NCBI RefSeq assembly: GCF_041886205.1
Contig: NZ_CP169029.1
From: Escherichia coli
Lineage (GTDB): Bacteria; Pseudomonadota; Gammaproteobacteria; Enterobacterales; Enterobacteriaceae
Length of the DNA: 64,000 nt
Strand: one strand, 5' to 3'
Below, piece by piece: positions 32,690 through 46,112 of this stretch. A program made the position numbers and the translations under genes. The notes beneath the pieces were generated by a model. The model did no database searches and was not told where the DNA came from. It worked only from the letters and a program-made list of their open reading frames with translations. Each line of letters starts with the position of its first letter. Position 1 is the stretch's first letter.

Positions 32690-33228
32690 ACTGCCTGTTC
32701 GAGGCTGAAGCTGTCAACATTCACCTGCGGTTTCAGCCTGTCGTTCATGATTTTAATGGCGTCGCCCAACTGCATCGCGCGACCCGCAATAACAACGCAG
32801 GGTTGCGCCAGCAGACATAGCGCGGCATTCTCGCCAGATTCAACGACCAGTAAATTCACTTGCTCGTTAGTGTCGCTCAACCAAACGCAGGCCGCATCGC
32901 CCGGCATTGGTGCCCACATTTCGCCATGGGAAACAAAATGCCAGCTTTTCGGCATTTGCGGTTTGAGATAACGAATTGCTACCAGTGCATTCAGCACCAG
33001 TTCGGCTTTTTGTTCTTTAGATAAATAAAAATCGCGGCACTTTTCTTCAAACGAGAAATAGAGCGCGGCATCGTCAACGCAAAAGCCTGCGGGAGAAAAG
33101 GCATCTGGAGTCAACATTTTGCGCGCAAAACGTGAGCGAAATAGCATACCATTGGCTAAATCGAGCATCATTCGATCGTGCTCTTCATCGTAATACCAAC
33201 GCCAGTTATCGTCTGGTTTAATTCGCAT
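32686..33228 (-). CDS. zapC: Cell-division protein ZapC (180 aa)
   Basis: Track ORF 32686..33264; the known product starts at [24 protein letters not shown] (ATG at 33228). Confidence 0.9.
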
Positions 33229-33401: not shown

Positions 33402-34412
33402 TTAGATATGGGTAACGATTTCTTTAATCAGCGGCGGACCTTTAAAAATAAAACCAGAATAAATTTGCACCAGTGAGGCACCCGCAGCAATCTTTTCACG
33501 CGCAGCGATAACCGAGTCGATGCCGCCAACCCCGATGATCGGTAAGCGACCGTTTAATTCCAGTGACAAGCGGCGAATAATTTCGGTGCTTTTTAACTGA
33601 AGCGGACGACCACTTAAGCCACCGGTTTGATCGCAATTTTTCATTCCCTGAACCAGAGAACGATCGAGTGTGGTATTGGTTGCAATAACGCCATCAATAT
33701 TATGGCGAACTAAACTATCGGCAACCTGGATCAATTCGTCTTCAGAAAGATCCGGCGCGATCTTCACTGCGATCGGCACATATTTATGGTGCATCGCTTG
33801 CAAATCATTTTGCTTATTTTTAATCGCGGTTAAGAGATCATCCAGCGCTTCACCATATTGCAGCGTGCGTAATCCTGGGGTATTCGGCGATGAAATATTG
33901 ATGGCGATATATCCCGCATAGGCATAGATTTTTTCCATACAAATCAGATAGTCATCTTTTCCCTGCTCCACTGGCGTATCTTTATTTTTGCCGATATTAA
34001 TACCCAGGACGCCGTCATAATGGGCCTTTTTTACGTTCTCTACGAGGTTATCAACGCCAAGATTATTAAAGCCCATACGGTTGATCAAACCTTCGGCATC
34101 TACCAGACGAAAGAGACGCGGCTTGTCATTACCTGGCTGTGGACGTGGCGTGACGGTACCGATCTCGATCGATCCAAATCCCATCGCGCCTAACGCATCA
34201 ATGCACTCCCCGTCTTTATCAAGACCGGCTGCCAGACCAAGCGGATTTTTAAACGTCAGGCCCATGCAGTTAACAGGTTTCGCAGGCACTTTCTGCCGCA
34301 CCAGTGCTTCAAACGGCGTTCCAGTAATGCGGCGTAATTGCTGAAAAGTAAACTCATGAGCGCGCTCTGGATCGAGCTGGAAAAGGGCTTTACGAACGAA
34401 GGGGTAGTACAT
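33402..34412 (-). CDS. pyrD: Dihydroorotate dehydrogenase (quinone), PyrD (336 aa)
   Basis: Track ORF 33402..34439; the known product starts at [28 protein letters not shown] (ATG at 34412). Confidence 0.95.
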
Positions 34413-34498
34413 GAACTCTCCTGGATTCCCGGTGTGCAAACCGGGGGCGTATTATGTGCGAGTTCGGACCAAAAGGGAATTGACCTGCGGCAAAAAAA

Positions 34499-34514
34499 AC
34501 GCAAACGTTTTCCG
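34499..34514. promoter_or_regulatory. Putative PurR operator in the pyrD promoter (ACGCAAACGTTTTCCG)
   Basis: Matches the PurR box consensus ACGCAAACGTTTGCGT at 12-13 of 16 positions, about 90 nt upstream of the pyrD ATG; pyrD is a known PurR target. Confidence 0.7.
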
Positions 34515-34522
34515 AACCTGTT

Positions 34523-35232
34523 TCAGGGCAGATTTTGCTCCTTCTTTGCACTCAACCCGCCGTAATCATTTATCGCCCGCCAGGCGACATGACACGGTGC
34601 TATTGCCTGACACCAGCTTGTCTGACGCTGGCTTTTAGGTGGCACAACTCCCGCATTACTTAACGCTTTACCATTTACGCTCACCTGAATCAGATTAATG
34701 TAGTAAGGCGTTGGGTTAGTGAGTTGCACACCCTGCGAATTCCGTGTCCAGCGTAATTGTTGATAAGCTTCCAGCGGGTCACCCGGCAAACCTTCGGGTC
34801 GCCAGAACAGTTTAAATACCGAGCGCATCGCCACTTTTACGCTCTGATTTTCGACTTTGCCGGATGGCACGCTGGCAATGCTTAACTCAAATAGCGTTTC
34901 GCGATCCACAGGCAAGATGTTGCTTTCCGTTCTCAGTAAGCGCAACGTGCCTGTAGTACCGGGCTTCAGGAGAATAAGTGGCGGAGCGGCCAGTAATGGT
35001 GCTGGCACTGTCGACGCTTCCCCCCGGCCCAACGCGTTGGGCGATTGATTTTACTGTTAATAAGCCAGGATTCCTGACTGGTATTAGTCAGTAAAATAGA
35101 TATCGATTCGCTGTCTGCCGGAAAGATAAATCGCGTTCCGCCGACCACCACTCCTGCCTGCAATTCACCCGCCACCAGCAGCGATAAAACGGCAAAAATC
35201 AAGAGCGCCAATCTGTTCCACGTATTAGTCAT
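34523..35232 (-). pseudogene. ycbF: Fimbrial periplasmic chaperone YcbF, disrupted by a frameshift in a 6-nt homopolymer (C6 on + strand, 35020..35025)
   Basis: The N-terminal part (MTNTWNRLALLIFAVLSLLVAGELQA..., track ORF 34966..35259) and the C-terminal part (track ORF 34523..35032) are in different frames. Adding one G to the minus-strand G6 run gives a continuous 236-aa PapD-like chaperone. Confidence 0.7.
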
Positions 35233-35740
35233 AATGAAGTACAAATGTCGCGCTGGCATTCACTTTACCCGACTGCACATCGCTATTAACAGGTCGCAAT
35301 TGCGCATAAAAAGTTAATGGCACCTTACCGCTATGTAGGCTGTAGTCTTTACTCGCCTGGTTAAGCGGAATCAACATCTTCGCATCATCCAGAATCGCAA
35401 TTGCCAGCCCGCTGGCTGCATCCGTACCACTTTCAATGGACAGCATTTCGCTCTGCACTCCGTCGGGGGTTCCTGAAAAGGTGACGTCAACCGTGCTGAC
35501 ATCTGTTCCGCAATCCTGCAAATTAATGATGAAAGATTTCTCCGGGCCATAATTCCCATGAGAAAAACGTGTCAGCGAGACATCGCCTAACTGCACATTG
35601 ATTTGCGTGCTATCCTGTGCTAGCACGCATGTATTACGGCGAAACGATCCGCTAATGTTGACCGTACCATCATGGGCAAATAGCTCACAGCCCCCCGTTA
35701 ATCCCAGTAAGCACAGAATCCAGATTATCCTTTTCAACAT
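35225..35740 (-). CDS. ycbV: Fimbrial-like subunit YcbV (171 aa)
   Basis: Track ORF 35225..35788; start taken at MLKRIIWILCLLGLTGG (35740), 5 nt after the ycbU stop. Confidence 0.85.
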   Translation of the reverse strand: MLKRIIWILCLLGLTGGCELFAHDGTVNISGSFRRNTCVLAQDSTQINVQLGDVSLTRFSHGNYGPEKSFIINLQDCGTDVSTVDVTFSGTPDGVQSEMLSIESGTDAASGLAIAILDDAKMLIPLNQASKDYSLHSGKVPLTFYAQLRPVNSDVQSGKVNASATFVLHYD

Positions 35741-35747
35741 CACTCCT

Positions 35748-36290
35748 TCACTGGTAAACCAGATCAAAATAGAGAACCGCCGTCGCATTACCGCCCGTTG
35801 CTCCCGCCTTTGTGGACTTATAACGAAGTTGATATTTGAGTGTGTTATCCCCGGCTTTTAAGGGCGTAAGAGGCTGGACCTGATTGAGCGGGATTTCTTG
35901 CTGAGTTTGCGCATCAAGAATTTGTACGGCAATCCCCGTTGCCATACCACCGCTTCCGCCTGTGTCAGTTAGTTTGAGCAGTGTCGGCGCAAGGGTGTCA
36001 GCCTCGCCGCTAAAAAGGACGTCCGCGCCAGTAATACCAGCGGCACAACCGGTAATATCGATATTCAAATCAGCAGCAGTGCTTACGGTATTCGCGGCCT
36101 GAAAATCACTGATATTAAAATCACCAATATGAATATTTTGTAATGCACTTTTGGTGGCGACATCACAGCCCTGATCGACCACATTACCATAAATATGCAT
36201 ACTCACTTGTTCAGGCCCAGCCATCCCGATATGGATGTTAAGAAGGCTAAAGAACAAAATAACGCACTGATATATCATTTTTTTCTTCAT
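35748..36290 (-). CDS. ycbU: Fimbrial-like subunit YcbU (180 aa)
   Basis: Track ORF MKKKMIYQCVILFFSLLNIHIGMAGPEQV..., signal peptide plus pilin-like C-terminus. Confidence 0.88.
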   Translation of the reverse strand: MKKKMIYQCVILFFSLLNIHIGMAGPEQVSMHIYGNVVDQGCDVATKSALQNIHIGDFNISDFQAANTVSTAADLNIDITGCAAGITGADVLFSGEADTLAPTLLKLTDTGGSGGMATGIAVQILDAQTQQEIPLNQVQPLTPLKAGDNTLKYQLRYKSTKAGATGGNATAVLYFDLVYQ

Positions 36291-36301
36291 ACGTTCACGC
36301 G

Positions 36302-39963
<3,662 letters not shown>

Positions 39964-39987
39964 CTCGCTCTCTTAACTGAAGACGGC

Positions 39988-40689
39988 TTACGATTTACAG
40001 TTGAGTTGCGGCGTTTCCGCCCCGTAGTCATTGATGGTTCGGTACGTCAGGCTGCTGTTTTTGGCACCCTTTGGCAGAGAGAATTGGTATTTATCAAAAG
40101 GGGAAATCATTTGATTTTTAACTACTTTCCCACCAATTTTCAGACCTGTCAGGGTAATGAAATAAGGTGTTGGGTTACTGACCGAAACCATGTCAGCTGA
40201 CGAAGTGCAACGTAGTTTTTCCGGAGCTTCATCTGGAGAATACGGCAAACCTTTTGGTCGCCAGAAAAGTTTAATGACGCTTTGCGTAGCAATCTTCAGG
40301 GTATTGCCCTCTTCCCGCTTCGTTGTTGAAGGGACCGCCCGTACGCTGGTGAAGAAAAGGGTTTCCCTGTCTTTCGCCAACGGCGCGCCAATATACATAA
40401 TGCGTAACAGATTCTCATTTGCTGGATTCAGCACAAATAGCGGCGGTGTAATAATAAAGTCCGCTGACTTTTTATTATCTGGTGTCATCACCCATGACTG
40501 AATAAGATAAGGAACATCCGGACTGGTGTTACGCACACCCAGTGAAATTTGCTCTTCACCTTCCGAATAAACAAGGCGCGTTGCAGCAAGTCCAACCCCA
40601 CCGTTGCCTGCCGCCCATGCGGACGAACAGCTTAGCAATATTGCCGTTAAACTTACGGTCACAATTCCCTTTGTTATGCAAGTTCTCAT
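39988..40689 (-). CDS. elfD: Fimbrial periplasmic chaperone ElfD (YcbR), 233 aa
   Basis: Track ORF MRTCITKGIVTVSLTAILLSCSSAWAAGNGGVGLAATRLVYSEGEEQISLGVRN..., PapD-like chaperone. Confidence 0.9.
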   Translation of the reverse strand: MRTCITKGIVTVSLTAILLSCSSAWAAGNGGVGLAATRLVYSEGEEQISLGVRNTSPDVPYLIQSWVMTPDNKKSADFIITPPLFVLNPANENLLRIMYIGAPLAKDRETLFFTSVRAVPSTTKREEGNTLKIATQSVIKLFWRPKGLPYSPDEAPEKLRCTSSADMVSVSNPTPYFITLTGLKIGGKVVKNQMISPFDKYQFSLPKGAKNSSLTYRTINDYGAETPQLNCKS

Positions 40690-40772
40690 AAAAAATTACT
40701 CTTAGATAAATATAAACATCCCCTCTAATAAGTTTATTAAAGGGGGGATTAATGAATCGTTAAAAAATTTTA

Positions 40773-41315
40773 TCAATAATAGTTAATATGAAAATCTGTT
40801 ACTGCATTGACATTACCTGCTGTCGCTTTACCGGTAGCAATATAATCAACTTTAAAGGTCACTGTTTGCTCAGCAGAATCTGCTAACTGAATATTCGTGG
40901 TTTCAGTTCCAGGAGTCACCGTTGTTGACCCATCTGGCATATACAATTGTAGAGCAACATTCGTCGCTGCATCGGTGGAAGCTTGATTAGCAAATGCTGT
41001 AGGTTGCACACCATCAGCCGTACCACTGAAAGTAAAAGCAGCATTTTTAGTTACAGTAACATCACAATCTTCTAAAGCAATTGGTACATCAGTTTTAACG
41101 CCAGAGACTGCTCCATTACTTTGCAACTTCGTTGCACTGACATTTGGCAGTGTGACTACTGAATCTTTTGTCGCAGCAACTAACGTACAGGCTGGAGCAA
41201 TGACTTTACCATTAAACGTAACGGAGCCGTCCGTGATGGCATTATCATCGGCCGCCATAACGCTGGACGTTACACACACCACAGTGATAAAAGCCGTCAA
41301 TACACTTTTTTTCAT
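40773..41315 (-). CDS. elfA: Major fimbrial subunit ElfA (YcbQ), about 180 aa
   Basis: Track ORF 40773..41324; start taken at MKKSVLTAFITVVCVTSSVMAADD (41315). Confidence 0.88.
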   Translation of the reverse strand: MKKSVLTAFITVVCVTSSVMAADDNAITDGSVTFNGKVIAPACTLVAATKDSVVTLPNVSATKLQSNGAVSGVKTDVPIALEDCDVTVTKNAAFTFSGTADGVQPTAFANQASTDAATNVALQLYMPDGSTTVTPGTETTNIQLADSAEQTVTFKVDYIATGKATAGNVNAVTDFHINYY

Positions 41316-45909: not shown

Positions 45910-46100
45910 TGCCGGATGTGCCGCACAAAACCAGCAGTTTCAACGGATTGTAGGCCTGATAAGACGCGTCAAGCGTCGCATCAGGCATTTGGGCACGGCT
46001 GCCGGATGCGGCGTGAACGCCTTATCCAGCCTACAAAACCAGCATTTTCAACGGACTTGTAGGCCTGATAAGACGCGTCAAGCGTCGCATCCGGCATTTT
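45910..46100. repeat. REP/BIME cluster: two ~66-nt direct repeats (45927..45992 and 46035..46100) with an inverted REP-like copy between them
   Basis: Repeated motif TGTAGGCCTGATAAGACGCGTCAAGCGTCGCATC(A/C)GGCA and inverted GCCGGATGCGGCGTGAACGCCTTATCCAGCCTACA, the canonical E. coli REP palindrome family, between convergent ssuB and pepN. Confidence 0.9.
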
Positions 46101-46112
46101 GGCTCAAAAGTA

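Follow-up and report, generated by a model that had tools for sequence, protein, structure and literature searches.

A private one-base contraction of the G tract in ycbF, a fimbrial chaperone gene of Escherichia coli, and its probable origin as a homopolymer under-call

Periplasmic fimbrial chaperones of the FimC/PapD type (represented here by 6e14_C, 1kiu_A, and 1pdk_A) contain a PapD_N domain followed by a PapD_C domain, carry a cleavable signal peptide, and have a subunit-anchoring cleft with the residues Arg8 and Lys112 (FimC numbering); their genes lie in fimbrial operons together with usher and pilin genes. Pilus genes can also undergo slipped-strand phase variation, as in the case of the poly-G tract of Neisseria pilC, in which a pilus-biogenesis gene is read in one frame or another according to the length of a G run in its 5′ portion. 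The pilC tracts are long and conserved and switch at high frequency, and documented contingency-locus tracts in general are longer than seven G.

In E. coli, elfADCG-ycbUVF is a known gamma-1 chaperone-usher operon (PMC3032704) and is cryptic. Ycb has been found in phylogroups A, B1, D, and E, with B2 carrying Auf instead (PMC3559732). The ELF fimbriae have been characterized in the O157:H7 strain EDL933, according to the passage of PMC3032704 that cites Samadder 2009, and among Keio mutants of seven ycb genes, only the ycbF mutant invaded HCT-8 cells like the wild type (PMC4914927). With respect to homopolymers, the indel rate in E. coli rises exponentially with run length (PMC8510543), and homopolymer deletions are a characteristic error of long-read sequencing (PMC12007338).

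In the window—that is, the whole stretch of 64,000 nt of DNA analyzed here—the operon is present in the order elfA-elfD-elfC-elfG-ycbU-ycbV-ycbF, followed by pyrD, zapC, and ycbX (Table 1). The orthologous gene at the locus under study is annotated by RefSeq as ycbF, 'fimbrial chaperone', 738 nt, in the closest annotated genomes, which bears out an earlier note, made from the letters of this DNA, that had named the gene as ycbF at the end of elfADCG-ycbUVF. Like the genes of FimC and PapD, ycbF accompanies usher and pilin genes in a fimbrial operon; unlike FimC and PapD, it is the second chaperone of its operon, ElfD being the first, and its frame in the window is broken after residue 80.

Table 1. 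Positions of the operon genes, the interrupted tract, the two fragments, and neighboring features, in window coordinates.
Feature	Position	Strand	Remarks
pyrD	33402..34412	-	downstream of ycbF, intact; 110-nt spacer between the two
ycbF	34523..35259	-	PapD/FimC-type periplasmic fimbrial chaperone; terminal operon gene; frame interrupted
Downstream fragment ORF, 169 aa	34523..35032	-	TTG start; remaining PapD_N including the Lys112 equivalent, and PapD_C; without signal peptide
Upstream fragment ORF, 97 aa	34966..35259	-	signal peptide, first ~45 mature residues including the Arg8 equivalent, and 17-aa out-of-frame tail KRRQCQHHYWPLRHLFS
G6 homopolymer (C6 on the + strand)	35020..35025	-	G7 in intact genes, codons GGG GGG G-AA (Gly79 Gly80 Glu81)
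Perfect 16-nt palindrome GCCCAACGCGTTGGGC	35027..35042		adjoins the tract on its 5′ side, read along the coding strand
Whole upstream operon part	35225..41315	-	ORF lengths equal to annotated lengths in the closest genomes; no indel relative to wlxctx60
ycbV	35225..35740	-	frame intact
ycbU	35748..36290	-	frame intact
elfG	36302..37372	-	frame intact
Second G7 run, in the clade-specific elfG allele	36955..36961	-	same length in all relatives
elfC (usher)	37363..39963	-	frame intact
elfD (chaperone)	39988..40689	-	frame intact
elfA	40773..41315	-	frame intact

On the minus strand, the sequence around the break reads ...AAT CGC CCA ACG CGT TGG GCC GGG GGG AAG CGT CGA..., with exactly six G at 35025..35020. 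This tract is the sole length difference from intact genes, confirming the frameshift that had been placed at the C6/G6 run. The addition of one G yields a continuous frame, which is 245 aa long when read from the PGAP start, ATG 35259, and 236 aa long, in agreement with the length given earlier, when read from ATG 35232; this frame reads ...RWAGGEASTVPAP.... In the restored 245-aa YcbF, Pfam PapD_N (PF00345) was detected at residues 36-158 (E = 5e-26) and PapD_C (PF02753) at residues 181-236 (E = 6e-14), which is the domain order of PapD-like chaperones. FimC (6e14_C) aligns with the restored protein end to end (E = 5.6e-33), residue 36 of YcbF falling on the N-terminus of mature FimC, and the signal peptide is probably cleaved after ELQA, at residue 35. 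Furthermore, the FimC alignment showed both subunit-anchoring cleft residues to be kept, the equivalent of Arg8 being the R in GGTRFIF and that of Lys112 the K in FKLFWRP. Restored YcbF thus resembles FimC and PapD in domain composition, in its cleavable signal peptide, and in these two residues.

With six G, no single uninterrupted frame in the window carries the signal peptide and both domains, the gene being divided into ORFs of 97 and 169 aa that share 67 nt in different frames. The break follows codon 80 and lies 45 residues into the 123-residue PapD_N, in a loop where the alignment with FimC has a gap as well. The assignment of the N-domain to the first ORF and the C-domain to the second, as made in the earlier note, is therefore wrong: what the upstream ORF encodes is the signal peptide followed by some three strands and a nonsense tail. 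Since the Arg8 and Lys112 equivalents end up in separate ORFs, neither fragment could, on paper, work as a chaperone. Gene callers begin the downstream fragment at GTG 35008, giving a protein of 161 aa; the protein collection searched contained no exact match to the fragment proteins of 97, 88, or 169 aa.

Start calls in this part of the operon vary among annotators, with 245, 236, or 229 aa given for ycbF, and 171 aa (PGAP) versus 187 aa (longest ORF, Prodigal-type; 35225..35788) for ycbV. The start codon of the 236-aa form of ycbF overlaps the stop codon of ycbV (ATGACTAA), which suggests translational coupling. A promoter and terminator scan of 34300..35400 returned nothing relevant on the coding strand.

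Comparison with the nearest complete genome, wlxctx60, aligned all 64,000 nt with 12 substitutions and one gap, the gap being the G tract. As the sole indel in 64,000 aligned nucleotides, the ycbF frameshift is not a chance feature. The other 75 of the 76 homopolymers of at least 6 nt in the window, including 17 A/T runs of at least 7 nt and the G7 run of elfG, agree with wlxctx60, indicating that the window assembly is not noisy in general. The extra G is present in all nine clade members of the complete-genome set (9/9). To define the clone itself, ZapC N68Y, a private substitution at window position 33027 (zapC codon 68), was used as a marker; it occurs on 11 public contigs, three of which are readable across ycbF and the longest of which measures 4,855,826 nt. 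Apart from the tract, three clone mates—the draft GCA_036253135.1, SRR12852204, and SRR29303307—match the window exactly over 20,542, 11,830, and 6,282 nt, respectively, and each has G7. The 20.5-kb stretch shared with GCA_036253135.1 spans 5 of the 12 clone-specific SNP sites. Thus, the G6 of the window is private to this assembly, and with G7 in near-identical clone mates, a real mutation would need a terminal branch of near-zero length.

A change that is confined to a homopolymer, private to one assembly, and contradicted by otherwise identical relatives is the pattern of an assembly artefact. The earlier note had left open whether the lesion is a genuine pseudogene or a homopolymer error, and the evidence leans toward the error: with a probability of roughly 60%, we consider G6 to be a one-base under-call of the homopolymer, the true gene being intact with G7. 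This reading draws both on the private nature of the change and on the behavior of G6 calls elsewhere in the databases, which resembles that of assembly errors (see below). In this scenario, a long-read-based assembly would have dropped one base from the longest G/C homopolymer in the region, and the recorded G6 would truncate YcbF after residue 80 on paper only, with the gene of the isolate itself staying at G7. The 4,855,826-nt contig with ZapC N68Y is chromosome-size, and hence long-read-based, making a long-read source for the window plausible, which counts for the under-call; if the window assembly were instead an Illumina assembly, a G7-to-G6 error would be unlikely, which would count against it. 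As with known long-read homopolymer miscalls, the change is private, removes a single base, and falls in the region's longest G/C run; a difference from them is that the 64 kb of the window show no second homopolymer discrepancy.

The length of the tract was determined across 5,426 complete E. coli genomes from exact matches to probes of 57-59 nt that differed in tract length alone. G7 was found in 2,819 genomes, G6 in 91, and G8 in about 14 (14-15), so that the in-frame G7 accounts for 96%, G6 for 3.1% (91/2,924), and G8 for 0.5%. The intact state of the ycbF tract is therefore G7; counting the tract in reference ycbF genes, a check proposed in the earlier note, gave G7 and no reference state in which G6 is in frame. 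Approximately 1,350 of the 5,426 genomes lack ycbF, consistent with the phylogroup distribution reported for Ycb (PMC3559732). In an alignment of six sequences, G7 was seen in intact genes (LHM10-1 and a K-12-like strain) and G6 in the window, FORC_082, and E118, with O157:H7 PA20 having GGGGGTG together with a separate T deletion. PGAP labels the ycbF genes of FORC_082, E118, and PA20 as 'frameshifted'. Public genomes already list the G6 allele found here as a frameshifted pseudogene, with this PGAP flag in 91 complete genomes.

Several of the G6 calls outside the clone of the window can be compared with close relatives. Within an O26:H11 clone, at least 58 genomes have G7 on an 11-kb haplotype identical to that of E2865, and only E2865 and UTAK-23 have G6; UTAK-12 and UTAK-15, which come from the same project as UTAK-23, have G7. 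Similarly, the E. coli C assembly CP020543.1 has G6, and NCTC122, C122, WG5 and its derivatives, and PA11 have G7 over 25 kb with this single gap and no mismatch. CP020543.1 was built from PacBio RS II data only (PMC6805351). The idea that G6 on the K-12-like haplotype marks an inherited clade spanning many laboratories was considered and rejected, given that the other assemblies of E. coli C, its nearest relatives, have G7. G6 calls also cluster by project: among the 60 G6 genomes listed, of the 91 in total, 34 come from four projects (14 UTAK/UTME, 10 Belgian ETEC, 7 CDC STEC, and 3 CRE), and the G6 genomes of these projects belong to strains of diverse genome size.

A control tract for these calls is provided by leuQ, a tRNA-Leu gene (contig L018, 4337..4423), whose 3′-end C8 run is recorded as C7 in 178 of 4,972 RefSeq 'complete' E. 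coli assemblies (3.6%), a rate of one-base loss similar to the 3.1% of G6 in ycbF. The C7 records include the K-12 laboratory strains NEB 5-alpha, HST04, and DTU-1, and 16 CDC strains are among the 60 listed. C7 in leuQ, which would cripple the tRNA if it were real, looks like a database-wide homopolymer under-call. The ycbF tract and the control tract are both mis-sized in about 3% of 'complete' assemblies, and this technology-dependent mis-sizing at the same or equivalent sites in other assemblies again matches an artefact. Taken together, the position of G6 calls on terminal branches, their clustering by project, the conflicts between assemblies of one strain, and the leuQ control make the G6 calls in the database look technical.

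Other candidate controls were less useful. The '7 G·C' runs of serW and serX were dropped since they are not mononucleotide runs in this strain, and the G7 run of elfG was uninformative, the allele occurring in just nine complete genomes, all with G7. No G/C run of at least 7 nt was found in an essential gene in ~115 kb (the window and ~50 kb of flanking sequence; contigs L006, L007, and L011). These ~115 kb consist mostly of housekeeping DNA, and G/C homopolymers of at least 7 nt occur in them just twice, both times in the ycb operon.

Logan contigs that have the haplotype of the window and carry the frameshift-type fragment were of three kinds. Three of them (L012, L014, and L015) have G6 along with other homopolymer deletions, namely G7 to G6 in elfG, G6 to G5 in ycbV, and T8 to T7, and a fourth (L013) has G8; these noisy assemblies count for the under-call. 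The contig from SRR19090883 (L016), 2,127 nt long, is free of other errors and matches the window base for base, G6 included, and it could be independent support for a real G6 allele.

This contig bears on the main alternative, namely that −1 replication slippage genuinely shortened the G7 tract in very recent times, leaving a null allele of ycbF that is tolerated because ElfD is kept and ycbF is dispensable under the conditions tested. We regard such a slip as a serious but rather unlikely explanation. The under-call and a real slip alike would predict a one-base contraction that is private and has clean sequence around it, and the lack of any other indel in the 64 kb of the window counts for the slip. 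Given the exponential dependence of the indel rate on run length (PMC8510543), the G7 tract is an obvious mutational hot spot and the likeliest site for a real knockout of ycbF. The clean window, the G6 contig from SRR19090883, the mutability of the tract—the most mutable site in ycbF—and the recurrence of real losses of the gene all count against the under-call.

Such losses are evident from lesions that cannot be homopolymer artefacts. A TTT-to-TT frameshift of the O157:H7 type, at a site corresponding to window 34788..34790, occurs in 298 complete genomes; lying outside any long homopolymer, it is a genuine inherited pseudogene, and ycbF was frameshifted in every O157:H7 genome examined. 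The interruption of the G tract to GGGGGTG in these genomes is synonymous. The O157:H7 pseudogene and the allele of the window are alike in affecting the same gene through a one-base deletion that PGAP calls 'frameshifted'; they differ in that the O157:H7 lesion lies at another site, in a gene whose tract reads GGGGGTG, and is lineage-wide, with the lesion of the window being private to one assembly. With G7 intact, a deletion at 34838 occurs in GCA_049981845.1 and in the independent SRA run ERR1937533, and further lesions comprise an additional G at 34894, a deletion at 34907, and internal duplications (L028-L035, the duplications being in metagenome scaffolds). Thus, loss of ycbF is tolerated and recurrent in nature. 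The wild-type HCT-8 invasion of the Keio ycbF mutant (PMC4914927) also speaks for tolerance of a real slip, as does the ELF function that PMC3032704, in its passage on EDL933, describes for O157:H7, taken together with the frameshifted ycbF of all O157:H7 genomes examined here. Moreover, a 161-aa fragment of the frameshift type, on the common haplotype, was found in 883 blocks of the protein collection, 388 of which include contigs of 10-20 kb, the size range of clean Logan assemblies at the ycbF locus; we infer that some short-read data sets carry the fragment, at a frequency that these unnormalized counts do not give.

Against a real slip stand, first of all, the clone mates with G7 over up to 20.5 kb of identical sequence, which leave almost no branch on which it could have occurred. 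The lesion does disrupt ycbF relative to intact orthologues, being one base short of the 2,819 G7 genomes, but it is not inherited by relatives (G7 is present in the nine clade genomes as well as in the three clone mates), and decay has not gone further: no second lesion was found in ycbF or in the rest of the operon, from ORF lengths and from the alignment to wlxctx60. In addition, intact ycbF is under purifying selection, with a dN/dS of 0.08 between the K-12 allele and the window-clade allele and of 0.14 between K-12 and Escherichia sp. E1V33. Finally, the equal −1 rate of the tRNA control shows that G6 calls are explicable without biology.

The earlier note had also raised a slipped-strand phase-variable site. 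In a contingency switch of this kind, G7 would be ON and G6 or G8 OFF, interconverting at high frequency, and phase variation would govern both the supply of the accessory chaperone and, through it, whether YcbU and YcbV are incorporated. Such a switch, which we hold to be very improbable, would account for the occurrence of G6 (91 genomes) and G8 (about 14) on many backgrounds, on terminal branches, and even among stocks of one laboratory strain, and the tract does lie early in a pilus-biogenesis gene, like the poly-G of Neisseria pilC, with its length setting the frame. Unlike the longer, conserved, high-frequency pilC tracts, the ycbF tract comprises seven G, below the tract lengths of documented contingency loci, and lacks conservation beyond E. 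coli. In O157:H7 an interruption breaks it, and it is absent from Escherichia sp. E1V33, the intact orthologue of which has no G run and reads TGG CCT GGC GTG AAG (TGGCCTGGCGTGAAG); the tract is accordingly an E. coli-specific accident of codon choice, and it has not been kept up across lineages and species. Furthermore, 96% of genomes have the ON length, as do all clean assemblies of the clone of the window, and the pattern of variation is reproduced by the tRNA-gene control and by batch effects among sequencing projects. Length polymorphism at ycbF (3.1% G6 and 0.5% G8) is no greater than the technical background (3.6% in the control), which leaves the phase-variable site unsupported.

A related reading takes the G7 run beside the 16-nt palindrome to be genuinely hypermutable, the G6 and G8 records (~3.6% of assemblies, among them different stocks of one laboratory strain) then representing real ON/OFF heterogeneity of the accessory chaperone within cultures. 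We give this still slightly less credence than an evolved switch; if true, the hypermutable ycbF tract would be a rare E. coli case of slipped-strand phase variation. Any role of the palindrome GCCCAACGCGTTGGGC in slippage or in miscalls by polymerase or sequencing is speculative.

Lastly, a real G6 allele might still be expressed if a −1 ribosomal frameshift or transcriptional slippage restored some full-length YcbF. Homopolymers can support slippage, and the frame required would be −1 at GGG GGG A, but the site has no canonical X XXY YYZ heptamer, and more than 96% of orthologues are in frame, so that a shift cannot be a conserved decoding feature. Known cases of productive transcriptional slippage involve runs far longer than G6. 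Residual expression by these routes is extremely improbable, and a programmed ribosomal frameshift was rejected, the shifted arrangement not being conserved and the orthologues being in frame with G7.

The G6 allele represents nothing new in kind, whether it stems from an assembly error, as in the preferred reading, or from a slip that very recently and in a routine way cost a dispensable accessory gene its function. Frameshifts in homopolymers that are seen in a single assembly should not be read as pseudogenes or as phase variation without read support. If the slip were real, it would add one more independent loss of ycbF to the several found in nature. The biological weight of either outcome is small, ycbF encoding the dispensable second chaperone of a cryptic fimbrial operon.

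Other parts of the region were seen to vary as well. At the position of the second G7 run, other elfG alleles read GGGGCAG. Between clades, elfG is ~93% identical, with the neighboring genes being much closer, and this divergence suggests a diversifying subunit or adhesin. IS1 insertions in elfG or elfC were present in numerous genomes, with ETEC1720, ETEC1722, and ETEC1739, for example, sharing one site (contig L010, 17270..17967); the ycb operon is a frequent IS target. Between pepN and ssuB, inverted REP/BIME-like repeats of ~70 nt were observed (window 45925..46103). The pepN-ssuB spacer measures 43 nt in K-12-like haplotypes (ETEC1720 and E. coli C) versus about 206 nt, and from this difference in length the repeat element is polymorphic.
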